A model generated the notes under the pieces. The model was not told where the DNA came from, did no database searches, and was given only the letters and a program-made list of their open reading frames with translations. Position numbers and translations under genes: made by a program. Positions 828 to 32,651 of a DNA stretch of 64,000 nucleotides are shown in pieces. Source of the stretch: an uncultured Candidatus Rokubacteria bacterium (GTDB lineage: Bacteria; Methylomirabilota; Methylomirabilia; Rokubacteriales; CSP1-6); NCBI GenBank assembly GCA_963762145.1, contig CAVXJS010000007.1, positions 224,001 to 288,000 on the forward strand, written 5' to 3'. The first letter of the stretch is position 1. Each line of letters starts with the position of its first letter.

Positions 828-3572
828 CTACGCCGCGGACGGCTTCTCGATGGGCGCGACGCGGCGCGCCACCGGCTTCACCAGCAGCTTCAGCACCACC
901 GGCAGGACGATCAGCGCCGCCACGAGGCCGCAGGCGGAGCCCAGGGTCAGCAGGAGGCCCAGGCTGAAGATGCCCTGGTGGCTGGCGATCATGAGGCTGC
1001 CGAAGCCCACCATGGTGGTGATGCCGTTGAGCGCGACGCCCAGCACCGCGCTGCGGGCGACGAGCGGCCCGCCGTGGGGGCGGCCCTCGAGGTGGCTCAG
1101 GATCACGTTGAGGCCGAACTCGGCCGCGGTGCCGATGATGAGCGGCAGGCCCCAGATGTTGGCCAGGTTGAACTTGATGCCGAAGACGTGCATGAGGCCG
1201 ACGGTCCACAGGACGCCCAGCACCATCGGCACGAGGCCGAGCATGCTCTCCCGCATGCGGCGAATCATGAGGATGCTGAGGCCGCCCACGAGGACGAAGG
1301 CGTAGACGCTCCCGGTGAGGTAGGCGCGCTCCATCAGCAGGGTCGCCTCGTAGGTGATGATGGGCGGCCCGGTGATGTCGGGATCCACCGTGCGGAGATC
1401 GCGCACGAACTCGGCCGCGCCCGCCTTCTCCCAGATGTCCACCTTGGGATGGACCTGGATGAGGAAGCGGCCGTTCTCGCCGATGAACTTGCGCCGGAGC
1501 TCCTCCGGCACGTCCTTGATGGTCACGGAGGTGGGCTTCAGGTTGCGCTGGAGGGTGTAGAACTTGTTCACGAAGTCCCGGTAGAGCTGGGCCTGCAGGT
1601 AGTTCAGCGCCGCCTCGGCCGAGTCCCGGTTGCTCCGCGTGAGCAGGCGCTGCACCTCGATGGTCTTGTCACGTACCACCCGGATCTCCGCCGGCAGCTT
1701 GGCTCCCGCCTCGACCGCGACCACGTCGAAGCGCCGCTTGATGTCGGCCAGCGCCTGCTTGAGCCGGTCGAGGTCGACCGTGCTCGAGCGCCCGACGCGG
1801 ATCGGGGCCACCAGGGGGGCGAAGCTCTTGATCAGCTCGATCTTCTCGGGCTGGTCGTCGGGGATCACGCGCAGGACCGAGTCGGTCTCGGAGACCGACG
1901 GCAGCTTCTCGAACGCCGCCTGCCTGGCCCGCAGCTCTTCCAGGGATGAAGCGGACGACAGGGCGTTGAACCCGGAGTGGCCCGTGCTCGAGAGAATGCG
2001 CCGCTCCCAGGCCACCGACTCGGTGCCCTTGGCCTGCAGGTTGAGCACGTTGTAGTCGAAGCCGACGCGGGTCACCGCCCAGAGCGAGAACGCGGTGAGG
2101 ATCCCGGCGCCGATCAGCACGGTGCGCGGGTAGCCCACCACCCGATCCAGGAGCGGCACGCGGATGCGCTCGAGCTGGTGCGCCCGCGGCCGCTGTCCCC
2201 GCGGGCGGTCCGCGTGCCGGCGGTCCACCAGGACCAGGATCGCGGGGAAGAGCGTGATCATGCCCACCCAGGCGATCAGGATCGCGATGCCCGCGATGAA
2301 GCCGAGCTCCTGGATGCCGCGGAAGTCGGTGAGCATCAGGACGAAGAACGTTCCGGCCGCGGTCAGCGCGCCCGCCAGCATGCCGGGACCGGTGCGCGCC
2401 GCGGTGTGCTCGAGAGCCTCGCGCAGGCTCCGGCCCAGGAAGATCTCCTCCTCGTAGCGGAAGAGGTAGTAGATCCCGTAGTCGATGCCGATGCCGACCA
2501 CGATGGAGATGAACATCACCGAGAACAGGGTGAGATGTCCGACCGTGAGGGTGATCACGCCCATGGACCAGGCCAGGGTCACCGCGAGCACGCCCAGCAT
2601 CAGGAGCGGCTTGCCGACCCGCACGAAGGCCAGGGCCATGACGAGCAGGGTGAGGGCGAAGGCGAGCACGTCCGCGATGCTGCTGTCGTGGAAGGCGGCC
2701 GTCATCTCGTCGTTTGAGAGCGCGGGCACGCCGGTGACTCCCGCCTGCACGTTCGGGAAGGCAGGCCGCAGCTTGGCGACCGCCTCGCGAATCGTCTCGA
2801 TGGCGGCCTGGTCGCCGATGAAGCTGCCCTTCTCGCTGGGCGGCGTCTCCACCAGGATGAAGAGCAGGCTCTTGTCATCGGAGAGGAAGTAGCCCGCGTC
2901 GTCGGGCGGGTCCTCGCCGAACGAGAAGAGGGTGCCCCAGGGCGAGCGGTAGGGCGCGGGGCGCTCGAGGCGGCTCGCCATCTGGTCGAGGAGCACGCGC
3001 AGGAACCGCGTGTCGACCGGCAGGTCCTTGTCCTGGAGGCCGATGTCGAAGAGGTTGGAGACGAAGGCGGCCGCCATCTGGGTGTTCACGCCCTCGAGCA
3101 GACGAGCGAGGCTCGGGTCACCCGCGAAGCTCTCCATGAACTCCTGGTGGTCGAAGATCTTGTCGCGGATCTCGCGCAGCTCGGGGGTCGTGAGATAGAG
3201 GAGCTGGCGCCCCTCGAACCGCTTGGGGTCGATCCGGTAGGCGACCCGCTGGAACTTGACCGGGGCCTCCCGGAGCGCCTCGGTGAGGCGGGCCGCGTAG
3301 GCGCGCGCGCCCTCGAAGGAGCCGGCCTCGACCACCACCACGATGTCCTCGAGCTCGCCGAACTCCTTCGCGTACTCGGTGTAGCGGGTCACGTAGCCCG
3401 CGCTCTGGGGCAGCAGTGCGCGGGTGGAGGTCTTGAAGGTGAGCGCGTGCGCGGTGTAGGCGATGGCGACCGCCGCGAGCAGGAGGGAGACCCCGACCGT
3501 GATCGCGGGCCGGCGGCAGGACAGACGCACTACCCGGCGGAGAACACGACCGGTGCGGGAAATCGCGATCAT
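828..3572 (-). CDS. hpnN: MMPL/RND-family hopanoid transporter (HpnN-like)
   Basis: 914 aa with two MMPL transmembrane repeats (GIGIDYGIY; IIGTAAEFG) and large periplasmic loops; lies in a hopanoid cluster. Confidence 0.8.
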   Translation of the reverse strand: MIAISRTGRVLRRVVRLSCRRPAITVGVSLLLAAVAIAYTAHALTFKTSTRALLPQSAGYVTRYTEYAKEFGELEDIVVVVEAGSFEGARAYAARLTEALREAPVKFQRVAYRIDPKRFEGRQLLYLTTPELREIRDKIFDHQEFMESFAGDPSLARLLEGVNTQMAAAFVSNLFDIGLQDKDLPVDTRFLRVLLDQMASRLERPAPYRSPWGTLFSFGEDPPDDAGYFLSDDKSLLFILVETPPSEKGSFIGDQAAIETIREAVAKLRPAFPNVQAGVTGVPALSNDEMTAAFHDSSIADVLAFALTLLVMALAFVRVGKPLLMLGVLAVTLAWSMGVITLTVGHLTLFSVMFISIVVGIGIDYGIYYLFRYEEEIFLGRSLREALEHTAARTGPGMLAGALTAAGTFFVLMLTDFRGIQELGFIAGIAILIAWVGMITLFPAILVLVDRRHADRPRGQRPRAHQLERIRVPLLDRVVGYPRTVLIGAGILTAFSLWAVTRVGFDYNVLNLQAKGTESVAWERRILSSTGHSGFNALSSASSLEELRARQAAFEKLPSVSETDSVLRVIPDDQPEKIELIKSFAPLVAPIRVGRSSTVDLDRLKQALADIKRRFDVVAVEAGAKLPAEIRVVRDKTIEVQRLLTRSNRDSAEAALNYLQAQLYRDFVNKFYTLQRNLKPTSVTIKDVPEELRRKFIGENGRFLIQVHPKVDIWEKAGAAEFVRDLRTVDPDITGPPIITYEATLLMERAYLTGSVYAFVLVGGLSILMIRRMRESMLGLVPMVLGVLWTVGLMHVFGIKFNLANIWGLPLIIGTAAEFGLNVILSHLEGRPHGGPLVARSAVLGVALNGITTMVGFGSLMIASHQGIFSLGLLLTLGSACGLVAALIVLPVVLKLLVKPVARRVAPIEKPSAA

Positions 3573-3596
3573 GAAGCGAGAACGACGACGGCGCGG

Positions 3597-4670
3597 TTAG
3601 TCGGCGCCGTTGATGAACGTTTCCAGTCGCGTGTGCGCCAGCTCGTCCGACCACTGCTCGGGCGGCGACTTCATCAGGTAGGCCGAGGGCGCGAGCAGGG
3701 CCCCCTTGATGCCACGGTCCATCGCGATCTTGCAGGAGCGGATCGCGTCGATCACCACGCCCGCCGAGTTGGGCGAGTCCCACACCTCGAGCTTCAGCTC
3801 CACGTTGATGGGCTGGTCCCCGAAGCTGCGGCCCTCCAGGCGGATGTGCGCCCACTTCCGGTCCTCGAGCCACGGCACGTAGTCGCTCGGGCCGATGTGG
3901 ATGTTGTCGTCGGCCATGTCGTGGGCGACCTGGGAGCGGACCGCGTCCGTCTTCGAGATCTTCTTGGAGTGCAGGCGCTGACGCTCCAGCATGTTGTAGA
4001 AGTCGGTGTTGCCGCCCACGTTGAGCTGGCTGGTCCGCTCGAGCCGCACCCCGCGGTCCATGAAGAGCTTGGTCAGGATGCGGTGGACGATGGTGGCGCC
4101 CACCTGCGACTTCACGTCGTCGCCCACCACCGGCAGCCCGCGGTCCTCGAAGCGGCGGCGCCAGTACTCTTCCCGGGCGATGAAGACCGGGATGCAGTTG
4201 ACGAAGCCGCAGCCCGCGTCGAGCATCTGCTCGACGTACCACTTGGTGGCCATCTCGCTGCCCACCGGCAGGAAGTTGACCACCACGTCGGTGCGGGTCT
4301 CCCGCAGGATGCTCTTGATGTCGGCGGTGCTGCCGGGGGCCTTGGTGATGATCTGGGAGAGGTAGTGGCCCAGGCCGTCGTGGGTCATGCCTCGCTGCAC
4401 CGGCACTCCCAGGCGGGGGACCTCCGCGAAGCGGACCGTGTTGTTCGGCTTGGCCGCGATCGCCTCGCCCAGATCCAGGCCCACCTTGTTGGCGTCGATG
4501 TCGAAGGCGGCCACGAACTCGATGTCGCCGACGTGATAGCCGCCGAGCCGCGGGCGCATGAGGCCCGGGATGAAGCCGTCGTCGGGCACACCCTTGTAAT
4601 AGTGGACACCCTGGACCAGCGCGGATGCACAGTTACCGACCCCGACCACCGCCACGCGAACAGATCCCAC
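3597..4670 (-). CDS. ino1: myo-inositol-1-phosphate synthase
   Basis: [43 protein letters not shown] and [14 protein letters not shown] motifs; GAGGAGG RBS upstream. Confidence 0.95.
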
Positions 4671-4760: not shown

Positions 4761-5732
4761 CTAGGCCGCCGGGCGGTCGGCGCCCAGCACCAGGAACCCC
4801 ACGACGGCCCACGTGATCTCGCGCAGGCGCCGTACGAGCACGTAGGTGAGGCCCGCGGTCGCCCCCAGGCCGAAGGCCTCGAAGAAGACCACGTAGCCGC
4901 CCTCGAGCGCCCCGAGGGAGGCGGGCACCATGAAGCTGGCGAACTTCACGCCGCTCGCGAAGGATTCGACGATCAGGGCGATGCCTAACGGCGCCGGCGT
5001 CCCCAGCAGGCTCAGCACCAGGTAGATCTCGAGGCCGCCGGTGGCCCAGGCCACCGCGTGGACCACCGCGGAAGCGACGAGCCGTCGCCGGCGGTGACGG
5101 TAGAGCGCGGCCAGCGCACGGTCCAGGTCGCCCAGGCCCTGCTCGAAGCGGCCGGTCCCGCCCACGCCCACGCGCTTGGCGAGCCGGCCGAGCAGCCGTC
5201 CGCCGCCGCCGAGCGCGCCGCTGGCCTGCACGAGCGCGAAGCCGCCGACCGCGAGCACCTCCACCACCAGCAACCCGGACATGACCGGCAGGAGCCGGCC
5301 CTCCGGAGGCGTCGGGAGGGCTCTGGCCGCCAGGAGGCCGAGGGCGAGGAAGATCACCTGGCCGGCGACCACCGTGGTCTTGTCGGCGATCACCGAGACG
5401 AAGCCGTCGAGCAGCGGGAGCCGCGGCCGCAGGAGGTAGGCCTTGAGCGGATCGCCTCCGACCGACATCGTGGGCGTGGCCAGGCTCACCGCCTCCCCGG
5501 CGAGGCGGGCGCGGAAGAGGAGGAGAAAGGGCACCGGCGTGGGCAGGAGGAGCTGCCAGGCGAGCGTGTCCACCGCGGCGGCCAGCACGTACGGGAAGGC
5601 GAGCACGATCGGCAGCCGCCAGCCGAGCGTGACGAACGAGGACCAGATGGCGGCGGGACCGATCTGCGCGACGAGATACCCCACCAGGGCCAGGCCGGTG
5701 ACCACCAGGAACGGTCGGACCCAGCGGGACAC
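4761..5732 (-). CDS. lysylphosphatidylglycerol synthase TM / flippase-like membrane protein (HpnL-like)
   Basis: GTG at 5732 overlaps the upstream TAG. Multi-TM protein with ARLAGEAVSLATP..VGGDPLKAYLL and FMVPASLGALEGG motifs. Confidence 0.75.
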   Translation of the reverse strand: MSRWVRPFLVVTGLALVGYLVAQIGPAAIWSSFVTLGWRLPIVLAFPYVLAAAVDTLAWQLLLPTPVPFLLLFRARLAGEAVSLATPTMSVGGDPLKAYLLRPRLPLLDGFVSVIADKTTVVAGQVIFLALGLLAARALPTPPEGRLLPVMSGLLVVEVLAVGGFALVQASGALGGGGRLLGRLAKRVGVGGTGRFEQGLGDLDRALAALYRHRRRRLVASAVVHAVAWATGGLEIYLVLSLLGTPAPLGIALIVESFASGVKFASFMVPASLGALEGGYVVFFEAFGLGATAGLTYVLVRRLREITWAVVGFLVLGADRPAA

Positions 5733-6904
5733 TAGGCGCGCGGCCTCCAGGCGCGGGCGAGATAGCCCACCCAGTAGGCCTGCGAGCCGACCGCCACGAG
5801 CGCCGCGACCACGAAGACGAGCGACGGCGCCAGCCATCGCAACGCCACGAAGGACAGGAGCAGGACGTAGAAGACGTCGCGGCTGGTGACGTGCGTGAGC
5901 AGGCCGCCCGCGGGGGGCCGGGCCTCGATCCCGGCGGGAAGATAGCGCGTGACGACCGCGCTCAGCGTCACCCCGATCGCGGCCAGGAGCCCGACCACGA
6001 CCATGCCCGGCCCGCCGGAGCTGACGCCCAGGCCGAGGACGATGCCGGCCTGGATGATCGTGTCGACCGCCCAGTCGAGGGTGGCTCCCAGGCGCGACTC
6101 CTGGAACGTCAGGCGGGCGATCTCGCCGTCGGCATGGTCCACGATGCACGCGGCGGTGTAGGCCAGCACGCCCAGCAGGGCGCTCGCGGTGGTCGCGTGC
6201 CAGAAGCACCAGATGGCGAGCAGGCCGATCGCCAGGCTCACGAGGCTCACGTGATTCGGCGCCACCGGCGTGCGCGCCAGGAGCCGGCTGATCCGGCGCG
6301 AGCAGGGCCGGTGCAGGTGCCGGTCGATGCCGGTATCTACCGCGATGCCCAGCGTGGTCTCGAGCGCCGCCTCGGCGCGGGCCAGGTCCGAGATCTCGCG
6401 CACCGTGACGTGAGGTCCCGTCGCCTCGCGGGCCGGGGCGCCCGCGTCCGCCAGGCGGCGCGTGAGCTGCGCGCCGACCGGCCGCCCCGCCGCCAGCTCC
6501 GGCCAGAGCTCGGCGACGAGCGGCGCGGGGACGAGCGCCACCGGCGCGGAGCCGCCGGCCGACGGCGCCAGCACCGCGCCCCGCGGCGCGGGCGCGGCGA
6601 ACAGGCCGGCGAGGGCGCTCACGTGGATCAGCGAGGAGGCGGGCAGGAGCAGCCACGCGGCCGGCTCCTCCGCGGGGGCGGGGGCGCCCGGGGTGAGCCA
6701 GCGGACGGTGGCCGCGAGCGCGGGCATCCGGCGCAACGCGCGATCGGCCTCCGCGTCGTGCAGCGTCGACGGCACCGCGATCAGGGAGGCGCCGGCGCGG
6801 AGCGCCGCGACCATGGCGCGGACGACGAGGGGGCGCCCGGCGACGACGGCGGCGGCTAGAGGTCGCGCCGCCCCGTCCGGGAGATAGAGCAGGGCGCGGA
6901 CCAC
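5732..6904 (-). CDS. CDP-alcohol phosphatidyltransferase with a degenerate N-terminal nucleotidyltransferase-like domain
   Basis: PNHVS and the DHADGEIAR...GATLDWAVD signature; the N-terminal VAGRPLVVR segment resembles NTP transferases. Confidence 0.85.
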   Translation of the reverse strand: MVRALLYLPDGAARPLAAAVVAGRPLVVRAMVAALRAGASLIAVPSTLHDAEADRALRRMPALAATVRWLTPGAPAPAEEPAAWLLLPASSLIHVSALAGLFAAPAPRGAVLAPSAGGSAPVALVPAPLVAELWPELAAGRPVGAQLTRRLADAGAPAREATGPHVTVREISDLARAEAALETTLGIAVDTGIDRHLHRPCSRRISRLLARTPVAPNHVSLVSLAIGLLAIWCFWHATTASALLGVLAYTAACIVDHADGEIARLTFQESRLGATLDWAVDTIIQAGIVLGLGVSSGGPGMVVVGLLAAIGVTLSAVVTRYLPAGIEARPPAGGLLTHVTSRDVFYVLLLSFVALRWLAPSLVFVVAALVAVGSQAYWVGYLARAWRPRA

Positions 6905-6905
6905 A

Positions 6906-7649
6906 TCAGCGCTCGAGCCGCTCGATGCCCGGGAGGATCTCGGTCTCGGCCCGGCGCAGGTCCTCCGCGAAGTCGACCTCCGTCCACGGCAGGCCCGTGA
7001 CGTCCACCCAGCCTACCGGCACGCGCGCGAGGAGCTCGTGCAGGGCGTCCTCGTACTCGTTCTCCCCGCCCGTCTCCTCGATGGATTCCTCCAGGAGGCG
7101 CACGTACTCCGGAGCGTGGGCCGCGTCGCACTTGAAGAATCCGACTCCCTCGCCGATCACGTCCCACCTCTGGGGCACGACCTTCGTGCCGAGCGCGATG
7201 ACCCGATCGTCCACCGTGTAGAGCTTGACCTCCTCGCCGGTGTCCTGGAAGGCGCGATCCAGCAGCAGCGCGCTCGGCGCGGGCGCGGCGATGAGCCGGG
7301 TCAGGAAGCGGGCGGGGAAGAGCACGTCCGCGTCCATGATCAGGGTACGGTCGGCGCTGCGCATCGTCTCGCGGGCGCACCAGAGCGAGAGCATCGAGCC
7401 CTTCCGATAGCCCGGGTTCTCGACGTAGCGGATCCGCATCGCGCCGCGCGCGGCGCCCGCGGCCCGGCGCACCTGATCCTGGCAGTGGCCGACCACCAGC
7501 ACCGACTCCTCCACTCCGCACGCCGCGAGCGCGTCCAGCATGCGATCGAGCAGCGAGCGGCCGCCCACCTCCAGCAGAGCCTTGTGGGTGGTGTCGCTGA
7601 TCGGCGCGAGCCGACGCGCCACCCCGGCGACGAGGATGACAGCCTTCAC
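6906..7649 (-). CDS. sugar/phospho-alcohol cytidylyltransferase (LicC/IPCT-like NTP transferase)
   Basis: GTG at 7649 (GTGA overlap); KAVILVAGVARRL...HKALLEVGG, MDADVLF and WTEVDFAEDL motifs. Confidence 0.85.
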   Translation of the reverse strand: MKAVILVAGVARRLAPISDTTHKALLEVGGRSLLDRMLDALAACGVEESVLVVGHCQDQVRRAAGAARGAMRIRYVENPGYRKGSMLSLWCARETMRSADRTLIMDADVLFPARFLTRLIAAPAPSALLLDRAFQDTGEEVKLYTVDDRVIALGTKVVPQRWDVIGEGVGFFKCDAAHAPEYVRLLEESIEETGGENEYEDALHELLARVPVGWVDVTGLPWTEVDFAEDLRRAETEILPGIERLER

Positions 7650-8836
7650 CGGATCGCGGGCCCGCCGAGGCCGGAGCGGAACCGATCGCGGATCTCTTCC
7701 GGGGAGTACGGGATGCGGGGTGCCGGCTGCTCCTCGCCGGTCACGCGGGCGAGGATGAAGCTCGGTCCGCCGCCCGCGACCGCGGTGGCCACCGCGGCGT
7801 GCAGCTCGTCGGCGCCCGCGACCGCGGTCACGCGCTCGTAGCCGGCGGCGCGCGCGAGGTGGTGGAGGCCGACCGCGCGCGAGGGAGAGGCCTGGCCGCC
7901 GGTCGATCCGTAGAGCGCGTTGTCGAACACCACGTGCGTCAGGTTGGCCGGGCGGGCGCGCCCCATCACCGGGCCGCCGCCGATCATCGGCAGGATGCCC
8001 AGGCTCATGAGCAGGTTGCCGTCGCCGTCCCAGACCACGGCGGGGCGCGCCGGCGCCGCGAGCGCCACGCCCAGGCCGATCGCGGAGGCCATGCCCATCG
8101 AGCCGATCATGTAGAAGTTCTCGATCCGGTCCTTGACCGCGAACGACTCGCGACAGATGTAGCCGTTGGCGTGAACCACGGGCTCGGTCGTCAGCGCGGA
8201 GACGGCGGCGCGCAGGGCCTCGAAGCGGGAGATGCGGGGGGCGGGGGTGGGGTCGGCCCACGGCGGCTCTGAGCGGCGCCCTTTATTTTTGTATTCGCTC
8301 GGCTCGCCTTCGGCTTCACCTCGCCCTGCTACTGCCCCATGATCTTCCGTGTCGAGGATCCCCGGCGGGAGGAGGAGGGCGACCGGCTGGCTCAGGCGCT
8401 CCGACTCGGACCGGCCCCACGCGATGTCATCCGCGATGGTCGTCGCGGAGAGCACGCGGTGCGGAATCCGGATCATCTCGAGCAGGCCCGGCGAGATCTC
8501 CCCCATCAACAGGTGCTCGGGCGCGTCCCGGCCCGCGTGGCCGCGCCACGTCACCAGCAGCAGCGCCGGGAGGCGGTACATGAGCGACAGCGAGACCAGC
8601 GCGTTGAGGCTCGTGCCGAGGCCCGAGTTCTGCATGAGGACCATCGGGCGCCGCCCGGCCAGCCAGGCCCCCGCGGCCAGGCCCACCGCCACGTCCTCGC
8701 GCACCGCCGGCACGTAGGGCAGGCGCGGGTGCGTCTCCAGGGTGGCGATGAGGCCCGAGATCATCGAGCACGGCACGCCGGTGAAAAAGTCGTAACCCTG
8801 CGTCTCGAGCTGCGCCGCGAACGCGGCGCCGTTCAC
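7646..8836 (-). CDS. fused alpha/beta ThDP-dependent sulfopyruvate/phosphonopyruvate decarboxylase (ComDE/Ppd family)
   Basis: FFTGVPCS, REDVAVGLAAG and MQNSGLG (alpha part); FYMIGSMG and GDGNLLM...FDN ThDP motif (beta part). Confidence 0.85.
   Translation of the reverse strand: MNGAAFAAQLETQGYDFFTGVPCSMISGLIATLETHPRLPYVPAVREDVAVGLAAGAWLAGRRPMVLMQNSGLGTSLNALVSLSLMYRLPALLLVTWRGHAGRDAPEHLLMGEISPGLLEMIRIPHRVLSATTIADDIAWGRSESERLSQPVALLLPPGILDTEDHGAVAGRGEAEGEPSEYKNKGRRSEPPWADPTPAPRISRFEALRAAVSALTTEPVVHANGYICRESFAVKDRIENFYMIGSMGMASAIGLGVALAAPARPAVVWDGDGNLLMSLGILPMIGGGPVMGRARPANLTHVVFDNALYGSTGGQASPSRAVGLHHLARAAGYERVTAVAGADELHAAVATAVAGGGPSFILARVTGEEQPAPRIPYSPEEIRDRFRSGLGGPAIR
8266..8345. repeat. AT-rich, hairpin-containing segment read in frame in the decarboxylase linker
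   Basis: Contains ctttatttttgtattcg, a gccttcggc mini-hairpin and gagcg...cgctc arms; composition is unlike the flanking codons. Confidence 0.45.
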
Positions 8837-9465
8837 GGCTTCTTCTTCCCGCCCTTGTCCTCGGCGAGCAGCTCGTCCTGCTTGTTGCGGAGCTTCGAGA
8901 CCAGCTCGTTGTAGGACGTGGTCTGGATGATCTTGTTGAACTGGGTACGGTAGTTCGACACGAGGCTCACGCCCTCGATGCTGACGTCATAGACGAGCCA
9001 CCGGTCGGCCCGCTTGAGCAGCCGGTAGTCCACCGGGACCTCGGTGCCGTTCTTGGTCACGATGCGGGTGGACACGGTGGCGAGGTCGCCGTCCGCGCGC
9101 TCGGCGGTGTACTGGATCTTCTCGCCCCCGTACGTCTCGATCTTGGAGATGTAGGAGCGCTCGAGCAGGTCGGCGAACAGGCTCACGAACTCGGCCCGCT
9201 GGGCTTCGGAGAGGGGCTGCCAGTGCCGGGCCAGGGACCGCTTCGCGATCTCGTTGAAGTCGAAGATCTCGTTGGCGATCCGACGGACGGCCGCCCGGCG
9301 ATCGTTCTGGTTCCCCCTGAGCGCCGGATCGTCGAGGGTCTTGAGGACCCGCTCCACCGCGCCCTTGAGCTGGTCGGTGGGCACTCCCGCCGCCGCGGGC
9401 CCCGCGCCGAGCCCGATCAACAGCGCGCCCGCCAGCACCATCGCCCCCATGCGAAGCCAGTTCAT
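8833..9465 (-). CDS. mlaC: MlaC/Ttg2D-family periplasmic lipid-binding protein (HpnM-like)
   Basis: Signal peptide; FDFNEIAKRSLARHW and WLVYDVSIEGVSLVSNYRTQF motifs. Confidence 0.9.
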   Translation of the reverse strand: MNWLRMGAMVLAGALLIGLGAGPAAAGVPTDQLKGAVERVLKTLDDPALRGNQNDRRAAVRRIANEIFDFNEIAKRSLARHWQPLSEAQRAEFVSLFADLLERSYISKIETYGGEKIQYTAERADGDLATVSTRIVTKNGTEVPVDYRLLKRADRWLVYDVSIEGVSLVSNYRTQFNKIIQTTSYNELVSKLRNKQDELLAEDKGGKKKP

Positions 9466-12367: not shown

Positions 12368-12388
12368 CGCTGAAAGGGTTCGCGAGAC

Positions 12389-13405: not shown

Positions 13406-13415
13406 AGGGCGCGGC

Positions 13416-13775
13416 ATGAGCCTCGAGGGCTGGGTGCCCGAGGTCGGGCAGTACCTGACGCTGGCGGAAGTGGTGGAGTTCGCCTTCGACTACCGGGGCA
13501 ACACCACGATCGTCCGGACCGACGGCACCGAGGTGGTCGGCTACATCTTCAACCGCAATACCTACGGGCCCGAGCCCTACCTCGAGTACTTCGACGAGGG
13601 CGGGGAGGGTCCCTTCACGCTCCGCTACGCCGAGGTCGCCAACATCAAGTTTTCCGGCAAGGACACCGCGGCCGGGAACAGCTGGCGGGCGTGGATCGAG
13701 CGCAAGGAGCGGGAGAAGGCCGAGAAGGGCGCGGCCGCCGGGGTTGTCCGGAATTCTGATCCTCACCGCGGTTGA
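13416..13775 (+). CDS. hypothetical protein in the hopanoid operon
   Basis: 119 aa with typical codon usage, tightly placed between hpnH and hpnG; no family recognised. Confidence 0.7.
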   Translation: MSLEGWVPEVGQYLTLAEVVEFAFDYRGNTTIVRTDGTEVVGYIFNRNTYGPEPYLEYFDEGGEGPFTLRYAEVANIKFSGKDTAAGNSWRAWIERKEREKAEKGAAAGVVRNSDPHRG

Positions 13776-14460
13776 GCTCGAGGCGCGGGTCCTGGCCCGC
13801 CGGCTCGAGCTTCCGCCTATCACCGTCCTGCCCTTTCCCGCCTTCGGGCGCGGTCTGCTCCGGGTCGCGCCGGTCGGTCTGCGGGCCGGCCTCCTCGGCT
13901 CGCGCTGGCCGCGGCTGCTCGCCGGGTTCAACTATCCGCTCGTGGTCTCGAGCGGTGTCTGCGGCGGCCTCGCGCCCGACCTGAGCGTGGGCGAGCTCGT
14001 CGTGCCCGAGAGCGTGCTCGGGCCCGGCGGCGAGCGCCTCAACGTGACGCCCACGCGGCACCGGCAGGCCACCGAGCTGGCGGGCGCCGCGCGCGGCGGC
14101 ACCCTCGTGACCTCGCGCGAGGTGGCGGCGACCGCCGAGGCCAAGGCGGCGCTCTTCGCGAGCACCGGCGCGGTGGCGGTGGACCTGGAGTCCGCCATCA
14201 TCCTGACGCACGCGGGGTCCGCGGGCTGCCCGACGCTGGTCGTGCGCGGCGTCTCGGACGCGGCGGGCGACAGCGTGCCGCTCGAGCTCATCGAGCTCAT
14301 GACGCCGGAGGGGAAGCTGCGCCCGGGGCGCGCGCTGGCCCTGACCGTCACGCGCCCGCGCCTGCTGCCGCGGGCCCTTGCCCTGAGTCGCGCCACGCGG
14401 CTCGCCCTCACCGCGGTCGCGCGGGTGATCGCGGCGATCGCGGCCTCATCGCGGCCGTGA
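13744..14460 (+). CDS. hpnG: hopanoid-associated nucleoside phosphorylase (MTA/SAH nucleosidase-like)
   Basis: ILTAVELEAR, SSGVCGGLAPDL, GAVAVDLES and VRGVSD motifs; located next to hpnH. Confidence 0.75.
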   Translation: MSGILILTAVELEARVLARRLELPPITVLPFPAFGRGLLRVAPVGLRAGLLGSRWPRLLAGFNYPLVVSSGVCGGLAPDLSVGELVVPESVLGPGGERLNVTPTRHRQATELAGAARGGTLVTSREVAATAEAKAALFASTGAVAVDLESAIILTHAGSAGCPTLVVRGVSDAAGDSVPLELIELMTPEGKLRPGRALALTVTRPRLLPRALALSRATRLALTAVARVIAAIAASSRP

Positions 14461-15470
14461 ACGTCCTCGTCACCGGGGGCACCGGGTTCGTGGGGGCCAA
14501 CCTCGTACGGGAGCTCCTCGCGGACGGCCACACGGTGCGCGTGCTGGCGCGGCCCGGCGGCGACCGGCGCGCCCTCGAGGGCTGCGCGGTGGACATCGTC
14601 GAGGGCGACCTGCTGGATGCCCGGTCGCTCCGCGTGGCGGTGGCCGGGGCCCGTCACGTCTACCACGTGGCCGCCGACTACCGGCTCTGGGCGCCGGACC
14701 TCCAGGTGCTCTACCGCGCCAACGTGGATGGCACGCGGCACCTCCTGGCCGCGGCGGCCGAGGCGGGCGCGGAGCGCATCGTCTACACCTCCACGGTGGG
14801 CGCGGTCGGCATTCCCAAGGACGGCACCCCGGGGGACGAGACGACGCCGGTGTCCCTCGCCGACATGGTCGGCGCGTACAAGGCGTCGAAGTTCTTGGCC
14901 GAGCGGGTGGCCGACGAATGGGCGGCGCGCGGCGCGCCGGTGATCATCGTCAATCCGTCGGCGCCGATCGGCCCGTGGGATATCAAGCCCACGCCCACCG
15001 GGCAGATGATCGTGGACTTCCTGAACGGCAAGATGGTCGGGTCGGTGGATACCGGGCTCAACATCGTCCACGTTCGCGACGTGGCCCGCGGCCACATCCT
15101 GGCCGCCGAGAAGGGCCGGGTGGGCGAGCGCTACATCCTGGGCCACCGCGACCTGTCGCTTCTGGAGATCTTCCAGATGCTCTCTACCCTGACCGGGGTG
15201 CCCGCGCCGCGCTTCCGCGTGCCGTACGCGGTCGCGTGGATGGCGGCCGCCGCCATGGAGGGCGTCTCCCTCGTCACCCGCCGTCCCCCCGCGGTGCCCC
15301 TCACCGCGGTGCGCATGTCCCGCAAGCGCATGTACTTCAGCACGGCCAAGGCGATCCGAGAACTAGGATTGCCGCAGACGCCAGCGGAGACCGCCCTCAA
15401 GGACGCGGTGGCCTGGTTTACCGACCGCGGCTATGCGAACGCCAAACGGAATCGGGGAAGCGCGGCATGA
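14457..15470 (+). CDS. hpnA: hopanoid-associated NAD-dependent epimerase/dehydratase
   Basis: VTGGTGFVG, HVAADYRLW, YKASK and NPSAPIGPWDIKPTPTG. Confidence 0.9.
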   Translation: MNVLVTGGTGFVGANLVRELLADGHTVRVLARPGGDRRALEGCAVDIVEGDLLDARSLRVAVAGARHVYHVAADYRLWAPDLQVLYRANVDGTRHLLAAAAEAGAERIVYTSTVGAVGIPKDGTPGDETTPVSLADMVGAYKASKFLAERVADEWAARGAPVIIVNPSAPIGPWDIKPTPTGQMIVDFLNGKMVGSVDTGLNIVHVRDVARGHILAAEKGRVGERYILGHRDLSLLEIFQMLSTLTGVPAPRFRVPYAVAWMAAAAMEGVSLVTRRPPAVPLTAVRMSRKRMYFSTAKAIRELGLPQTPAETALKDAVAWFTDRGYANAKRNRGSAA

Positions 15471-15625
15471 GGTGGGGTATCGAGCGCGGCGCCCACACCC
15501 AAACGGAATCGGGGAGCGCGGCATGACGTGGGGTGGAGAGCGCGGCGTGACGTGGGGTACCGAGCGCGGCGCCTACACGCCAAACGGAACTGGGGGAGTG
15601 CGGGGGCCATTTCTGGGCCCCCGCA
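15442..15625 (+). repeat. degenerate modular repeat array ending in a 10-bp GC hairpin
   Basis: CCAAACGGAA occurs at 15442, 15499 and 15580; agcgcggcRTGAsGTGGGGT occurs three times; the hairpin is tgcgggggcc-atttctg-ggcccccgca (15599-15625). Confidence 0.8.
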
Positions 15626-15699
15626 TATGAAGAGCTTTTAAGAACTAGACGGATGACAGCACAGACAGCCCAGACGACAGCACAGAAGGATACGACGGC

Positions 15700-16548
15700 A
15701 TGAACGCCGGACAGTTCGTCTCGCGTCTGACCCGCAAGAGCCGCTCGAACTTCTTCTACGCGTTCCTCTGCCTCCCCCGGGCCCAGCGCGAGGCGATCTA
15801 CGCGTGCTACGCCTTCTGCCGCATCGTGGACGACGCGGTGGACCTGGTGTCCGACCGCGAGAAGCAGCGCGCGGAGCTCGGACGCTGGCGCGAGGAGATC
15901 GCGCGCGTCTACGAAGGGCGGCCCGAGCATCCGGCGGGCCAGCGACTGCAGGTGGCGGTCCGGCAGTTCCCGATCCCGCGCGCCGCGCTCGAGGAGATCA
16001 TCGCGGGAGTGGAGATGGACATGGACCATCCCACCTACGAGACCTTCGACACGCTGTATCCCTACTGCTATCGGGTGGCCTCCGCGGTGGGGCTCTGCTG
16101 CATCGAGATCTTCGGCTACTCGGACCCGCGGACGCGCGAGTACGCGGTGAACCTGGGGGTCGCGCTCCAGCTCACCAACATCCTCCGAGACGTCCAGGTG
16201 GACGCGCGCATCGGGCGCGTCTACCTCCCGCAGGCCGACCTGCGGCGCTTCGGGGTGGCCGCGGAGGACCTGGCGCAGGGGCGGTACACGCCCGCCTTCG
16301 TCGAGCTCATGACCTTCGAGGCATCGCGCGCCCACGAGTACTACCAGCGCGCGTGGGCGGCGCTGCCGGCGGCCGACGCGCGGCGGCTGTTCGCGGCCGA
16401 GATCATGGGCCGTACCTACTTCGCGCTGCTGCGGGCCATCGAGGCGCGGCGCTTCGACGTCTTCACCCGTCGCGTTGCCCTGTCCACCCCCCGCCGTCTC
16501 GCCATCGCCTTCCGCTGCTGGCTCGGTGCCCGCCTGGCCGTCTCGTGA
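15700..16548 (+). CDS. hpnD: presqualene diphosphate synthase
   Basis: SRSNFFYAF, YAFCRIVDDAVD, YCYRVASAVG and LQLTNILRDV. Confidence 0.88.
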   Translation: MNAGQFVSRLTRKSRSNFFYAFLCLPRAQREAIYACYAFCRIVDDAVDLVSDREKQRAELGRWREEIARVYEGRPEHPAGQRLQVAVRQFPIPRAALEEIIAGVEMDMDHPTYETFDTLYPYCYRVASAVGLCCIEIFGYSDPRTREYAVNLGVALQLTNILRDVQVDARIGRVYLPQADLRRFGVAAEDLAQGRYTPAFVELMTFEASRAHEYYQRAWAALPAADARRLFAAEIMGRTYFALLRAIEARRFDVFTRRVALSTPRRLAIAFRCWLGARLAVS

Positions 16549-17549
16549 AGGCCGCGGTCTGCGACGGGGGTGCCATCGAGCTGCGCGAGTGGCCCGTGCC
16601 CACCCCGGGCCCCGGCGAGCTCCTGCTGCGCGTGAGCGGCTGCGGGCTCTGCGGCTCCGACATCCTCAAGATCAACGCGGCCACACCCGGGCCGGCCGTC
16701 CTCGGCCACGAGGTGGTGGGGCAGGTCGTGGAGATCGGGGCGGGGGTGCGGCGCTTCGCGCCCGGCGACCGGCTCGTGGTCGCCCATCACGTGCCGTGCT
16801 TTCGCTGCCACTACTGCCGGCGCGGCAGCCCCTCCATGTGCCGCCACTTCAAGCGGGTCAATCTCGATCCGGGCGGCTTCGCGGAGCTGGTCCGCGTGCC
16901 CGCGCCCAACGTGGAGCACGCCGCCTTCCGCCTGCCCGCCGGGATGACCGAGGAGACCGCGTCCTTCACCGAGCCGCTGGCCTGCTGCCTGCGCGCGGTG
17001 AAGCGGAGCCAGGTGGCCGCGGGTGACACCGCGCTCGTGGTGGGCCTCGGCTCGATTGGCTGCCTGCTGGCCCAGCTCCTCGCTCTCGAGGGCGCGCGGG
17101 TCTTCGCCGCCGACCTGCTCGAGTCCCGGCGCGCGCTGGGGCGCCACCTGGGCGCGCGCGTGCTCGATGACGACGCCGCGCTGGACGCCGCGCTGGGCGA
17201 GGCGACCGACGGGCGCGGCGCCGATCTCGTGGTCATCACCGCGGGCGGTGCCGCCGCGCTGCCCGCCGCGGCCGCGCGCGTGCGCGACGGCGGGACGCTG
17301 CACTACTTCGCGGGCGGCGCGGGTGAGGGCCTGCCACTGTCGCTCGGCGCGCTCTACCATCGCGAGCTGACGCTCACCGCCACCTACTCGTCCTCCCCGG
17401 CCGAGCTCGAGGAGGCCTTCGCGCTCCTGGCGGGGGATCGGATCCGGGTGGACGGTCTCATCAGCCACCGGCTTCCGCTCGGGCGCCTGGGCGAAGGCGT
17501 GGAGCTGATGCGCCGCCACGAGGCGGTGAAGGTCTACGTGATTCCGTAG
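16545..17549 (+). CDS. zinc-dependent (sorbitol/threonine dehydrogenase-like) alcohol dehydrogenase 1
   Basis: GTG at 16545 overlaps the hpnD stop; CGLCGSD, LGHE, CFRCHYCRRGSPSMC and GLGSIG. Confidence 0.88.
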   Translation: MKAAVCDGGAIELREWPVPTPGPGELLLRVSGCGLCGSDILKINAATPGPAVLGHEVVGQVVEIGAGVRRFAPGDRLVVAHHVPCFRCHYCRRGSPSMCRHFKRVNLDPGGFAELVRVPAPNVEHAAFRLPAGMTEETASFTEPLACCLRAVKRSQVAAGDTALVVGLGSIGCLLAQLLALEGARVFAADLLESRRALGRHLGARVLDDDAALDAALGEATDGRGADLVVITAGGAAALPAAAARVRDGGTLHYFAGGAGEGLPLSLGALYHRELTLTATYSSSPAELEEAFALLAGDRIRVDGLISHRLPLGRLGEGVELMRRHEAVKVYVIP

Positions 17550-17550
17550 C

Positions 17551-18582
17551 ATGCGTGCCCAGGTGTTCCACGGCCCGGGTGATCTGCGCCTCGAGGATCT
17601 CCCGGTGCCCGAGCCCGAGCCGGGTGGTCTCGTGATGCGCGTGGAGGCGGCGCTCACCTGCGGCACCGATGTCAAGACGCTGCGCCGCGGCCATCCCGTG
17701 ATGATCCCGCGCGTGCCGACCGTGTTCGGCCACGAGCTGGCCGGCGTGGTCACCGCGGTGGGGCGGGACGCGCCCAGCGTGAAGGAGGGCGATCGGGTCG
17801 TGGCCGCGAACTCGGCGCCCTGCGGGCGATGCCGCCTCTGCATGGCCGGACGGCCGAATCTCTGCGAGGACCTGCTCTTCGTCAACGGCGCCTACGGCCA
17901 GTACATGGCGCTGCCCCCGCGCCTGGTCGCCCGGAACGTGGTCCCGATCGGGCCGGGGCTGGCTACCTCCATCGCGGCCTTCGTCGAGCCGCTGGCCTGC
18001 GCCCTGCTGGGGATCGAGCGCGGGCGGGTCGAGCCGGGGATGACCGTGGCGATCTGGGGCCACGGCCCCCTCGGGTGCCTGCTGGCCCTGGCCGCCCGCC
18101 AGCGCGGGGCTCACGTGATCATCGTGGGCAAGACGGGCTGGCGTCTCGACCGGGTCCGCGAGCTCGAGCTGGGTACGTCCGTGGACGCCCTCACCGTCCC
18201 GGACATCCAGGAGCACCTGCGGGGGCTGACCGGGGGGCGGGGGCCCGATGTCACGGTTGACGCGACCGGCCGGCCGGAGGTCTGGGAGCAGGCCATTGAG
18301 GGGGTGGGCCGGGGAGGCACCGTGATATTGTTTGGAGGTTGCGCCCCGGGCACCTCGGTGCGGGTGGATACACGCCGGGCCCACTACGAAGAGCTCACGC
18401 TGGTGGGGGCGTTTCACCACACGCCGGGCATGATCCGACGCGCGGTGGAACTCCTTGAATCAAAGGCGATCGATCCGGCCGGACTGCTGACACATCGCAT
18501 GGGACTGGGGCAGGTGAAAGAAGCACTGGCGCTGATGGAGCGTGGTGAGACCATGAAGGTGCTGGTCGACCCCTGGCATTGA
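17551..18582 (+). CDS. zinc-dependent alcohol dehydrogenase 2
   Basis: TCGTD, FGHE, CGRCRLCMAGRPNLC and GHGPLG. Confidence 0.9.
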   Translation: MRAQVFHGPGDLRLEDLPVPEPEPGGLVMRVEAALTCGTDVKTLRRGHPVMIPRVPTVFGHELAGVVTAVGRDAPSVKEGDRVVAANSAPCGRCRLCMAGRPNLCEDLLFVNGAYGQYMALPPRLVARNVVPIGPGLATSIAAFVEPLACALLGIERGRVEPGMTVAIWGHGPLGCLLALAARQRGAHVIIVGKTGWRLDRVRELELGTSVDALTVPDIQEHLRGLTGGRGPDVTVDATGRPEVWEQAIEGVGRGGTVILFGGCAPGTSVRVDTRRAHYEELTLVGAFHHTPGMIRRAVELLESKAIDPAGLLTHRMGLGQVKEALALMERGETMKVLVDPWH

Positions 18583-18607: not shown

Positions 18608-19612
18608 ATGACCACGTCGCTGCCGCTGCAACAGATCGTCCTGGCCGGACCCCGGGGCTTCTGCGCCGGGGTGGACCGGGCCATCGACATCGTCGAGCTC
18701 GCGCTCCAGGTGTGCCCGCCGCCCGTGTACGTGCGCAAGGAGATCGTGCACAACCGGCACGTGGTGGAGGCGCTCCGGGCCAAGGGCGCCCACTTCGTGG
18801 ACGAGCTGGACGAGGTGCCGGACGACGCCACCGTCATCTTCAGCGCCCACGGCATCTCTCCCGCGGTGCGCGCCGAGGCCCACCGGCGCGGGCTCCGGGT
18901 GATCGACGCCACGTGCCCGCTCGTCACCAAGGTGCATCTCGAAGCCGTCCGCTATGCGCGCGAGGGGTACACCATCATCCTGGTCGGCCACGCCGATCAC
19001 GACGAGGTGGTGGGGACCATGGGCGAGGCGCCGGACCGCATGTTCCTGATCGCCCACCCGGAAGACGTGGACAAGCTCGTGGTGGCCGATCCGGACAAGG
19101 TGGCGTATCTCACCCAGACCACGCTGTCGGTGGACGACACCCGGGACTGCATCGAGGCGCTGCGTCGTCGCTTCCCCAAGATCGTCGGGCCGGCCAAGGA
19201 CGACATCTGCTACGCGACCCAGAACCGGCAGGCGGCGGTGAAGACGGTGGCGGGCGCGGTGGACGTGCTGCTCGTCATCGGGGCGGCCAACAGCTCGAAC
19301 GCCAACCGCCTCGTCGAGGTCTCGACCGTCATGGGCACGCCGTCGTATCTCATCAACGACAAGAACGACATCCGTCCGGAGTGGCTCGAGGGCATGGACC
19401 GCGTCGGCGTCACCGCGGGCGCCTCGACCCCCGAGCACCTGGTGACGGAGGTGGTCGAGGAGCTGCGACGCAAGCGCGGCTCCAAGGTGCAGGAGGTCCA
19501 CGTGGTCGAGGAGGACGTGCGCTTCGGTCTGCCCCGGGAGCTCGAGGACATCGCCAAGGCCGCGGGGAAGCCGCTGCCGCCGCGCAGCGGCGCGGTGGCG
19601 GTGAGCGGGTAG
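18608..19612 (+). CDS. ispH: 4-hydroxy-3-methylbut-2-enyl diphosphate reductase
   Basis: PRGFCAGVDRAI, EIVHN, DATCPLVTKVH, ICYATQNRQ and TAGASTPE. Confidence 0.96.
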   Translation: MTTSLPLQQIVLAGPRGFCAGVDRAIDIVELALQVCPPPVYVRKEIVHNRHVVEALRAKGAHFVDELDEVPDDATVIFSAHGISPAVRAEAHRRGLRVIDATCPLVTKVHLEAVRYAREGYTIILVGHADHDEVVGTMGEAPDRMFLIAHPEDVDKLVVADPDKVAYLTQTTLSVDDTRDCIEALRRRFPKIVGPAKDDICYATQNRQAAVKTVAGAVDVLLVIGAANSSNANRLVEVSTVMGTPSYLINDKNDIRPEWLEGMDRVGVTAGASTPEHLVTEVVEELRRKRGSKVQEVHVVEEDVRFGLPRELEDIAKAAGKPLPPRSGAVAVSG

Positions 19613-19616
19613 GGCC

Positions 19617-20558
19617 ATGCGGCTCGTCACCTTCCGGCGCGGGCGCGGCGAGCCCAAGCCGGGCGCGCTCTGGCAGGAGCACGTGCTCGACCTGACCGGC
19701 CTCGCCAAGGATCTGGCGACCCAGCGCGGCACCGCGCGCCGCGGGCGCGGCGGCTTCCCCCGCACCGTCCTCGAGATCGTCCAGGGCGGCGACGCGGTGC
19801 TGGCGCTCACCCGGGAGGCCTGGGAGTACGGCCAGCGGCTCGTGGGGCAGACCGCGGCCGAGGAGCTGGCCCAGCGGCGGCTGGCCTACCCGGCCAAGCG
19901 CGTGCGGCTGCTCGCTCCGATCCCGTCGCCGTCCCGGAACGTCTTCTGCCTCGGGCGCAACTACGCCGACCACGCGGCCGAGCGGGGAGCGGCCGCGCCC
20001 GAGCATCCGGTCTACTTCACCAAGCCCGCGACCGCGGTGGTGGGGCCGGGCGACGACGTGGTGCACCACGCGATCACCAAGGAGCTGGACTACGAGGTCG
20101 AGCTGACCGCGGTGATCGGCACCGGCGGGCGCGACATCCCGCGCGCCGAAGCGCTCAAGCACGTCTTCGGCTACACCATCATCAACGACGTGACCGCGCG
20201 CGATCTGCAGAAGCGCCACCAGCAGTGGTTCAAGGGCAAGTCGCTCGACACCTTCTGCCCGATGGGCCCGGTGCTGGTCACCGCCGACGAGATCCCGGAC
20301 CCGCAGGCCCTCGCGATCTCCCTCCGGGTGAACGGGCAGGTCCGCCAGTCGAGCAACACCGCCAAGATGATCTTCCCGGTCGCCCAGTGCATCGAGGTGC
20401 TCTCCCAGGGCATGACGCTGCTGCCCGGAGACATCATCGCCACCGGCACGCCGGAGGGGGTCGGGGCGGCGAGCGGGAATTTCCTCAAGGCGGGAGATCG
20501 CCTCGAGGCGGAAGTTGAGAGTATCGGGGTCCTCCACAGCAAAATAGTCCGCCCTTAG
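19617..20558 (+). CDS. fumarylacetoacetate hydrolase family protein
   Basis: CLGRNYADH, LDYEVEL, NDVTARDLQ, KGKSLDTFCPMGP and GDIIATGTPEGVG. Confidence 0.92.
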   Translation: MRLVTFRRGRGEPKPGALWQEHVLDLTGLAKDLATQRGTARRGRGGFPRTVLEIVQGGDAVLALTREAWEYGQRLVGQTAAEELAQRRLAYPAKRVRLLAPIPSPSRNVFCLGRNYADHAAERGAAAPEHPVYFTKPATAVVGPGDDVVHHAITKELDYEVELTAVIGTGGRDIPRAEALKHVFGYTIINDVTARDLQKRHQQWFKGKSLDTFCPMGPVLVTADEIPDPQALAISLRVNGQVRQSSNTAKMIFPVAQCIEVLSQGMTLLPGDIIATGTPEGVGAASGNFLKAGDRLEAEVESIGVLHSKIVRP

Positions 20559-32648: not shown

Positions 32649-32651
32649 GCC

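Follow-up and report, generated by a model that had tools for sequence, protein, structure and literature searches.

Background

The gene cluster considered here lies in a 64,000-nucleotide stretch of DNA from an uncultured Candidatus Rokubacteria bacterium (contig CAVXJS010000007.1, positions 224,001 to 288,000; hereafter the window). The described system closest to it is the Group 1 phosphonolipid pathway. In one RefSeq survey, the 'Burkholderiales_CDP-OH' family of this pathway accounts for 318 of the 882 phosphoenolpyruvate (PEP) mutase neighbourhoods, and the available part of that survey gives no isolated product for it (PMC8942020). A homologous Nostoc cluster with hpnL has been drawn as phosphonolipid genes (PMC5987646), phosphonate clusters have been reported in Nitrospirota (PMC7298704, PMC9765116), and an undiscovered terpene-phosphonate has already been suggested for Roseomonas and Belnapia (PMC8776678). 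On the hopanoid side, squalene cyclase has been confirmed in Rokubacteria, with the hopanoid output called unconstrained (PMC10697835), and the function of HpnL is left unexplained in the accessible parts of two recent papers (PMC12583986; PMC12324291, which there makes no mention of 'phosphon-'). No phosphonate-bearing hopanoid is described in the titles and abstracts of the literature we searched, whose coverage leaves out most subscription journals.

Our analysis indicates that the locus is best explained as a Rokubacteria hopanoid synthesis and export cluster housing the downstream half of a phosphonate head-group pathway. The module type is a known orphan pathway, that of the Group 1 phosphonolipids, of which the window holds part; new here are mutase-like proteins with a cysteine-bearing catalytic loop (Cys loop) in hpn-linked loci, and a tie to hopanoid clusters that crosses phyla.

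Results

A candidate phosphonate module in the left arm of a hopanoid cluster

The cluster consists of two divergent arms separated by ~95 bp, between mlaE and a CruF-like gene. Four left-arm genes on the reverse strand make up the module: a phosphonopyruvate-decarboxylase-like thiamine diphosphate (ThDP) enzyme with fused alpha and beta parts (7646-8836, 396 amino acids (aa); TIGR03297 284 bits against a cutoff of 312.5; PDB match 9iz3), a PntC-like phosphonate cytidylyltransferase (6906-7649, 247 aa; best PDB match Treponema denticola PntC, 6pd1, E 2.1e-13), an AF2299-type cytidine diphosphate (CDP)-alcohol phosphotransferase (5732-6904, 390 aa; PF01066), and an HpnL-like LPG_synthase_TM membrane protein, a putative flippase (4761-5732, 323 aa; PF03706; best model TIGR03476, 155 bits against a cutoff of 195.65). 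The sequence-only reading had proposed that this arm activates a small polar unit as a CDP derivative for transfer to a lipid; among the units it considered, the C2 phosphonate holds up, and we regard a C2-phosphonate head group as very probable, while the sulfonate and inositol options lost ground in the comparisons below.

For these comparisons, a decarboxylase alignment was used to scan GTDB genomes, which gave at least 586 confirmed stretches, and the best 80 of these were taken with flanks of up to 10 kb; genes were called and clustered by script, 125 + 43 proteins (cluster representatives and selected singletons) were annotated, and presence was scored by tblastn. The 28 Methylomirabilota-type loci (27 in a 99-support clade with the window, and L036 assigned by title) divide into 20 that are hpn-linked and 8 that are unlinked, and the other survey loci number 52. 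Five loci with short or cut contigs or no module (L038, L047, L051, L070, L075) are left out of the lineage tally, and 13 mostly archaeal ComDE-type loci form a contrast set. Among homologs that are 76-96% identical to the window's decarboxylase are proteins labelled Rokuibacteriota and Methylomirabilota, and the nearest genome loci mostly bear these labels too, in agreement with an origin in Ca. Rokubacteria. In four loci the title disagrees with the sequence, which places them with Rokubacteria or Binatia (L001, Nitrosotalea; L002, Verrucomicrobiia; L023, Nitrosocosmicus; L039, Enterobacteriaceae); these are probably mislabelled or mis-binned contigs. Nine Nitrospina/Nitrospirae loci with a related decarboxylase and neither PntC nor transaminase were set aside as a different context (L054, L057, L058, L060, L062, L063, L065, L069, L080); in these, a split decarboxylase follows an epimerase, usually downstream of glyS and often ppdK.

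The decarboxylase keeps company with phosphonate genes. Directly upstream of it, 7 of the 20 hpn-linked Methylomirabilota-type loci carry a fusion of a PEP-mutase-like and a nucleoside triphosphate (NTP)-transferase domain, complete in five and truncated by a contig end in two, and a canonical PEP mutase with the EDKx5NS motif adjoins the same decarboxylase clade in 5 of the 8 unlinked ones, with those of L006 and L013 scoring 368 and 373 bits against a cutoff of 319.55. A 2-aminoethylphosphonate (AEP) transaminase follows the decarboxylase in all Nitrospirota module loci (7/7), Binatia-type loci (8/8) and Scalindua loci (5/5), and also in 3 of the 28 Methylomirabilota-type loci (L006, L030, L036); two of the four transaminases scanned exceed the TIGR03301 cutoff. 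In a quick tree, which carries a long-branch warning, the window's enzyme falls in a 66-row bacterial clade, distinct from one of 13 rows that is mostly archaeal and of ComDE type and that includes loci next to comA. Because of these PEP mutase and AEP transaminase neighbours, and because its clade is separate from ComDE, the window's ThDP enzyme is most likely a phosphonopyruvate decarboxylase, despite its sub-cutoff TIGR03297 score.

The PntC-like protein carries R13, K23, D108 and E200 as equivalents of R15, K25, D106 and E196 of T. denticola PntC (Tde1415), which are kept in 34-35 of 35 aligned homologs, with Asp at the E104 position in 34. Residues E104 and E196 of the T. denticola enzyme lie beside the AEP amine (PMC6697681), and an amino-phosphonate is therefore the favoured, though not proved, substrate of the window's enzyme. 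The Mycetohabitans and Roseomonas cytidylyltransferases nest in the window's PntC family, by tree and shared signature. In the phosphotransferase, a degenerate nucleotidyltransferase-fold N-domain precedes a membrane domain with an intact DxxDGxxARx8Gx3Dx3D motif (D256, D259, G260, A263, R264, G273, D277 and D281, invariant in 21/21 aligned sequences). Its structural model (predicted local distance difference test score, pLDDT, 90.4) finds its best fold match in AF2299 (4o6m, E 5.6e-11) and then in IPCT-DIPPS (4mnd), and the protein is nearer to AF2299/DIPPS than to CEPT1 (E 1.8e-16 vs 0.17); NF041135, for IPCT/DIPPS di-inositol phosphate synthesis, gives 80 and 53 bits, under its cutoff of 580, and the fold gives no identification of the acceptor. 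HpnL homologs lie inside the phosphonate clusters of Mycetohabitans and Roseomonas, and the window's phosphotransferase and HpnL both match the Mycetohabitans cluster by tblastn. The comment to TIGR03476 reportedly notes HpnL homologs in an AEP-lipid context.

The module adjoins hopanoid genes in several lineages

Co-occurrence of the module with hpn genes, which the sequence-only reading had put forward as a check, proved real and partial: 6 of 13 lineages have the module next to hpn genes, in differing gene orders, six others have it unlinked, and L032, where hpnA alone precedes the contig end, is ambiguous. Among the 28 Methylomirabilota-type loci, 20 are linked, and shc precedes mlaE, at the cruF/hpnH-mlaE position, in 13 of the 15 relatives that span this interval. 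Binatia-type loci share the order mlaA-mlaC-hpnN-ppdAB-aept-pntC-hpnK facing hpnI-hpnJ, with hpnN in 8/8 and hpnK, hpnI and hpnJ in 6/8, the last three over their TIGR cutoffs where scanned. Among planctomycete-labelled loci, L049 and L050 carry hpnJ, hpnK and hpnI upstream of the module, and L035 reads hpnCDE-ispA-dxs-shc-hpnH-ppdAB-aept-phosphotransferase-hpnA-hpnG. On a Roseomonas marmotae plasmid, the whole module sits between ispH and hpnN of a full cluster (hpnABCDE-shc-hpnG-hpnH-ispH...hpnN), and all 9 Mycetohabitans records are linked, with the module 16-18 kb from shc. If each locus is given a background of 1-10%, the binomial tail for 6/13 lineages is 2e-9 to 9e-4, and at most 1e-7 to 6e-3 once the discovery lineage is removed, figures that serve only as a guide given the assumed background, non-independent lineages and plasmid records picked by similarity.

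Two further arrangements were seen around these modules. In Binatia-type clusters (L042-L046, L053; about 5500-16600), TonB-dependent receptors come next. In Scalindua (L059, L064, L066, L067, L074), ppdAB-aept-pntC-phosphotransferase lies near fabF/acp with no mutase in the flank, and the module there possibly provides a phosphonate head group for anammox lipids.

Linked mutase-like fusions carry an altered catalytic loop

In all eight aligned fusions (L003, L007, L014, L021, L023, L032, L035, L047; that of L003 at L003:8337-10001), ED[N/S]xFPK[K/R]CS replaces EDKx5NS, which puts Cys at the catalytic-loop Asn122 position. When aligned with PDB 1m1b, these proteins keep the equivalents of D58, D85, D87, E114, R159 and H190, and of K120, which we take to have a role in PEP mutase. 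The five fusions scanned score 257-294 bits on TIGR02320, under its cutoff of 319.55; the best PDB matches of the variant are PEP mutases, and it forms a 100/99 clade among PEP-mutase-type proteins in a tree that has two hydrolase-type rows as its root. When five of the fusions were made into a profile, 119 of the 120 matches listed had Cys and one had Ser at the Asn122 position, in a set that the profile itself selected; labels among the matches listed include Methylomirabilota and single Chlamydiae, Omnitrophica and Limnocylindrales. The residues other than K120 have Mg-site or substrate roles in PEP mutase, and Asn122Thr is the change that most authors tie to hydrolase activity (PMC7916636). 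From the fusion to an NTP-transferase and the position before the decarboxylase, we argue that the Cys-loop protein is probably a mutase. Published surveys filter PEP mutases by the EDKx5NS motif (PMC6697681, PMC12723261), and with Cys at the Asn122 position such a screen would therefore discard the hpn-linked fusions. The Roseomonas mutase (EDKLFPKTNS) and the Mycetohabitans mutase are both canonical; linkage to hpn genes therefore does not depend on the Cys loop.

ino1 travels with hpnN

Between the module and hpnN lies ino1, for an inositol-3-phosphate synthase (3597-4670, reverse strand, 357 aa; PDB 1gr0, E 1.7e-142), which had been assigned to the same head-group module. The survey separates the two. 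By tblastn, 18 of the 20 hpn-linked Methylomirabilota-type loci have ino1 and none of the other 60 loci does; all 52 loci outside Methylomirabilota lack it, even those that encode a member of the window's phosphotransferase family. In seven loci without PntC, phosphotransferase or HpnL, it is the gene next after the decarboxylase, and hpnN comes behind it wherever the contig extends far enough. Since ino1 is retained beside hpnN without the transferases and is missing from the 52 other loci, it is separate from the phosphonate module and travels with hpnN, not with the phosphonate genes. Across Rokubacteria hpn clusters more broadly, ino1 is found upstream of hpnN, nearly always adjacent, irrespective of phosphonate genes.

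The window's copy is incomplete, with its four genes intact

Across all 64 kb, tblastn with sequences from relatives found no match to a PEP-mutase domain, an AEP transaminase or a 2-oxoglutarate (2OG) oxygenase, nor to shc, hpnI, hpnJ or hpnK, the latter four as the sequence-only reading had said. The hpnD query matched hpnD alone, and neither hpnE nor hpnO was found, though these were looked for only by Pfam scans of 24 + 40 chosen window open reading frames (ORFs). In junction blastn, L003 aligns with the window on both sides of its 1.66-kb fusion gene, between mlaC and the decarboxylase, and the fusion gene is therefore cleanly absent from the window. The ratio of nonsynonymous to synonymous substitution rates (dN/dS) against L001-L003, a simple NG86 estimate on high-GC genes, is 0.20-0.32 for the decarboxylase, PntC and HpnL; the phosphotransferase, at 0.43-0.47, is close to hpnG (0.42-0.55). 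Gene content varies among relatives: in the 20 hpn-linked loci, the phosphotransferase is present in 10, PntC in 12 and the AEP transaminase in 2, and a 2OG oxygenase homolog, ~50% identical to the Mycetohabitans gene, occurs in 8 of the 28 Methylomirabilota-type loci. Given that shc is likewise absent from the window, yet hpnH is strongly conserved, the missing partners are probably elsewhere in the genome, and we take the pathway to be dispersed over the genome, not dead.

Other genes of the cluster and its surroundings

All genes that had been named in the two arms are present as intact ORFs on the strands first assigned to them; the claim that the left arm is mostly joined by overlapping stop and start codons stands narrowly, with 5 of its 9 junctions overlapping and the other 4 gapped (one by 1 bp, three by 24, 25 and 90 bp). 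Besides the module and ino1, this arm encodes an HpnN-like MMPL/RND hopanoid exporter (828-3572, 914 aa; Pfam MMPL; TIGR03480 579 bits against a cutoff of 752), an MlaC/HpnM-like periplasmic lipid shuttle (8833-9465; PF05494; TIGR03481 95 bits), MlaD (9491-9931; TIGR04430 142 bits, cutoff 135), the ABC ATPase MlaF (9928-10698; best model NF008809 MlaF, 202 bits) and the permease MlaE (10695-11501; TIGR00056 248 bits, cutoff 212), all on the reverse strand.

The right arm, on the forward strand, opens with the CruF-like membrane protein (11597-12367; PF04240), whose gene stands ahead of hpnH in 14 of the 28 Methylomirabilota-type loci; as a guess, this protein could be a diploptene hydratase. 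HpnH, adenosylhopane synthase (12389-13405), scores 543 bits on TIGR03470 against a curated cutoff of 225, one of the marks of a C35 hopanoid biosynthesis cluster, and it is followed by a conserved 119-aa protein with no Pfam or NCBIfam match, which the sequence-only reading had not named (13416-13775), present in 15/15 related loci that have both hpnH and mlaE, whose model is a small beta-barrel with weak Sm/WYL-like matches and no confident fold (Foldseek best E 5e-3). Next come an HpnG-like phosphorylase (13744-14460; TIGR03468 115 bits against a cutoff of 187, which, like TIGR03480 for HpnN, is still the best-scoring model), HpnA (14457-15470; TIGR03466 464 bits, cutoff 368) and HpnD, presqualene diphosphate synthase (15700-16548; TIGR03465 328 bits, cutoff 279). 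Two Zn-dependent dehydrogenases stand in tandem after hpnD (16545-18582), the first (16545-17549; PF08240/PF00107) below all NCBIfam cutoffs and the second (17551-18582) polyol-dehydrogenase-like, with sorbitol dehydrogenases as best PDB matches (E 4.5e-38), and a similar pair lies beside hpnC in L035. They are candidates for a phosphonoacetaldehyde reductase or for the reductase from ribosylhopane to bacteriohopanetetrol (BHT); assignment to the known phosphonate-catabolism family TIGR03366 was rejected, at 121 and 96 bits against a cutoff of 328. IspH (18608-19612; TIGR00216 337 bits) and an FAA-hydrolase-family gene (19617-20558; PF01557) complete the arm, the latter with no match in the 80 related loci, whose fetched flanks did not extend that far.

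Outside the cluster, a DUF222/HNH ORF (57-824), likely a mobile remnant, lies tail to tail with hpnN, with 3 bp between their ends. Sulfur-oxidation-type genes (TauE, NrfD, molybdopterin oxidoreductase, SoxY, SoxZ, and flavoprotein and Fe-S subunits) occupy 29198-39666 and are followed by a tricarboxylic acid cycle operon (42003-54445). Frameshifts in aconitase, succinyl-CoA ligase beta and biotin carboxylase, together with an IDH-MDH read-through (42003-46530, 51963-53110, 61315-63330), are probably assembly indels, none of which falls inside the cluster.

Discussion

In the pathway that we propose, PEP would be converted to phosphonopyruvate by a PEP-mutase-like enzyme encoded outside the window, the gene for which is adjacent in many relatives, and the ThDP enzyme, going by its family and context, would decarboxylate this to phosphonoacetaldehyde. 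A transaminase encoded elsewhere would then give AEP, or one of the Zn-dehydrogenases the hydroxyethyl form, and the PntC-like enzyme, as its conserved residues suggest, would produce the cytidine monophosphate (CMP) derivative, CMP-AEP. The AF2299-type phosphotransferase, by motif and fold, would move the phosphonate to a lipid alcohol, after which HpnL may flip the product and HpnN and Mla may export it. The likeliest single acceptor is the bacteriohopanepolyol side chain made via HpnH and HpnG, giving a phosphono-hopanoid, and we offer this full pathway tentatively, at somewhat less than an even chance. The broader proposal, that the Group 1-type product is generally a phosphonate-esterified bacteriohopanepolyol (in Rokubacteria, Binatia, planctomycetes, nitrifiers, anammox bacteria and some Proteobacteria), made in part via the Asn122Cys mutase clade and with HpnL as flippase, is doubtful.

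Several observations weigh against a hopanoid acceptor. To our knowledge, no CDP-alcohol phosphotransferase accepts a hopanoid, and the best structural relatives of this one act on inositol phosphate. Apart from the module's own HpnL, linkage fails in a second type of Rokubacteria locus (the 8 unlinked of 28), in Nitrospirota (0/7) and Scalindua (0/5), with an ispA-like gene following in four of the Nitrospirota loci, in L068 and Cupriavidus P-10 (20 kb searched on each side in P-10), and in Burkholderia (0/4 replicons, with the module ~1 Mb or more from the listed shc match); the Binatia-type loci, which have the tightest hpnIJK link, show no phosphotransferase in the fetched flank (0/8). The window itself is without mutase, transaminase, 2OG oxygenase and shc, and in L001, the nearest relative, an internal deletion has removed the phosphotransferase. 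Across 52 alphaproteobacterial strains, none of 63 hopanoid structures is named with phosphorus in the available part of the source, the strains' module content being unchecked; in the hopanoid acceptor's favour, the same source reports HpnL-family genes to be absent from the tested genomes without hpnH (PMC12583986). A possible alternative, though on the unlikely side, is that the product is an ordinary glycerophosphonolipid (diacylglyceryl-AEP or hydroxy-AEP), or that the module supplies an AEP donor to an outer-membrane glycan, with hpn clustering reflecting co-export and membrane cooperation. Diacylglycerol is the usual acceptor for soluble CDP-amino-alcohol donors, and six lineages hold the module apart from hpn genes, both of which count for it. 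A glycerolipid is also the standing prediction for Group 1 clusters (PMC8942020, PMC5987646), and in the surface membranes of Tetrahymena both phosphonolipid and tetrahymanol are abundant, as two distinct lipids (PMC2108490). Yet the accessible part of PMC8942020 characterises no such lipid from Group 1 clusters despite expression, the module has been recruited repeatedly into hpn clusters and in none of the 80 loci lies beside glycerolipid genes, and the phosphotransferase resembles AF2299/DIPPS more than CEPT1.

The remaining alternatives change the head group or deny it. A sulfopyruvate decarboxylase (ComDE-like) supplying a sulfonate head group is extremely unlikely: the two halves of the decarboxylase do score on the ComDE models TIGR03845 (120 bits, cutoff 148) and TIGR03846 (159 bits, cutoff 221.5), both below cutoff, but TIGR03297 scores higher, the enzyme groups apart from archaeal ComDE and pairs with PEP-mutase-like and AEP-transaminase genes, and we know of no precedent for cytidylyl activation of a sulfonate. 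It is improbable that Ino1 supplies the acceptor in the form of inositol phosphate, giving an AEP-inositol diester, or that the product is of di-inositol phosphate (DIP) or phosphatidylinositol (PI) type and unrelated to hopanoids. The operon shared by ino1 and the transferases, the AF2299, IPCT-DIPPS and PIP synthases that head the phosphotransferase's structural and profile matches, and the extended cassettes of L014 (L014:13226-19020) and L016 (L016:16154-20866), which add a second phosphotransferase, a HAD hydrolase and a class-III aminotransferase (in L014 also a Gfo/Idh/MocA dehydrogenase), would suit such a product; against it stand the distribution of ino1 described above and a cytidylyltransferase that has the PntC/LicC acidic pair, not the IPCT sequence there. 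Quite improbable, finally, is that the module is eroding in this lineage and yields nothing here, so that the cluster makes plain C35 hopanoids alone. Patchy gene content in the 20 hpn-linked loci and the clean deletion of the mutase gene at the window's junction point that way, and among the 120 matches listed for the L030 transaminase no named close homolog is labelled Rokubacteria. However, the four module genes are intact in an assembly with indels elsewhere, all have dN/dS < 0.5, shc is missing as well beside a strongly conserved hpnH, and Nitrospira metagenome-assembled genomes are reported with phosphonate clusters (PMC9765116), though the Nitrospirota flanks here hold no mutase.

If the head group does land on a hopanoid, the Group 1 product and the function of HpnL would both be answered, and a new class of hopanoids with a C-P bond, relevant to membrane biology and lipid biomarkers, would follow. 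If the Cys-loop mutase is active, then, whatever the acceptor, EDKx5NS screens undercount phosphonate producers among abundant soil bacteria; most authors credit position 122 for the difference between mutase and hydrolase (PMC7916636), and the variant thus offers a direct mechanistic test.

Comparison with known systems

The window's phosphotransferase shares with Archaeoglobus AF2299 and IPCT-DIPPS (4o6m, 4mnd) a two-domain architecture and the intact CDP-alcohol phosphotransferase motif, but at 16-23% identity and in a context of phosphonate and hopanoid genes. HpnI, HpnK and HpnJ constitute the pathway to BHT glucosamine and cyclitol ether, which resembles our proposal as a polar decoration of a C35 hopanoid and whose genes flank the phosphonate genes in Binatia-type loci and in L049/L050; it differs in transferring a glycosyl rather than a phosphonyl group, by genes absent from the window. 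T. denticola PntC (Tde1415, 6pd1; PMC6697681) is the best PDB match of the cytidylyltransferase, with the four equivalents R15, K25, D106 and E196 kept. The overall match is weak (E 2e-13). Like LicC, the window's protein has Asp in place of E104, and it is without the transaminase fusion that the PntC of L049 has.

The Roseomonas/Belnapia 'terpene-phosphonate' clusters likewise link PEP mutase, decarboxylase and aminotransferase closely to terpenoid genes (PMC8776678), and the R. marmotae plasmid shows these terpenoid genes to be a full hpn cluster; they differ in that the accessible part of PMC8776678 names no hopanoid acceptor or mechanism, that one family is concerned and that the mutase is canonical. 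Closest of all is the Group 1 phosphonolipid, or 'Burkholderiales_CDP-OH', type (PMC8942020), with which the window shares a Ppd-like decarboxylase, a stand-alone PntC, a CDP-alcohol phosphotransferase and an LPG-synthase/HpnL homolog, and to which related Methylomirabilota loci add a Ppm-PntC-type fusion, an AEP transaminase and a 2OG oxygenase. The Mycetohabitans cluster has all seven genes, the window's PntC belongs to the same family, and the product is uncharacterised in both. Several features set the window off from the Group 1 type. Three of the seven core genes are missing from it (the PEP mutase-PntC fusion, the AEP transaminase and the 2OG oxygenase), and its AF2299-type phosphotransferase has 390 aa where the Mycetohabitans protein has ~230. 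In its relatives, the linked mutase-like protein carries the Cys loop, and the window's module sits within an hpn-mla operon together with ino1.

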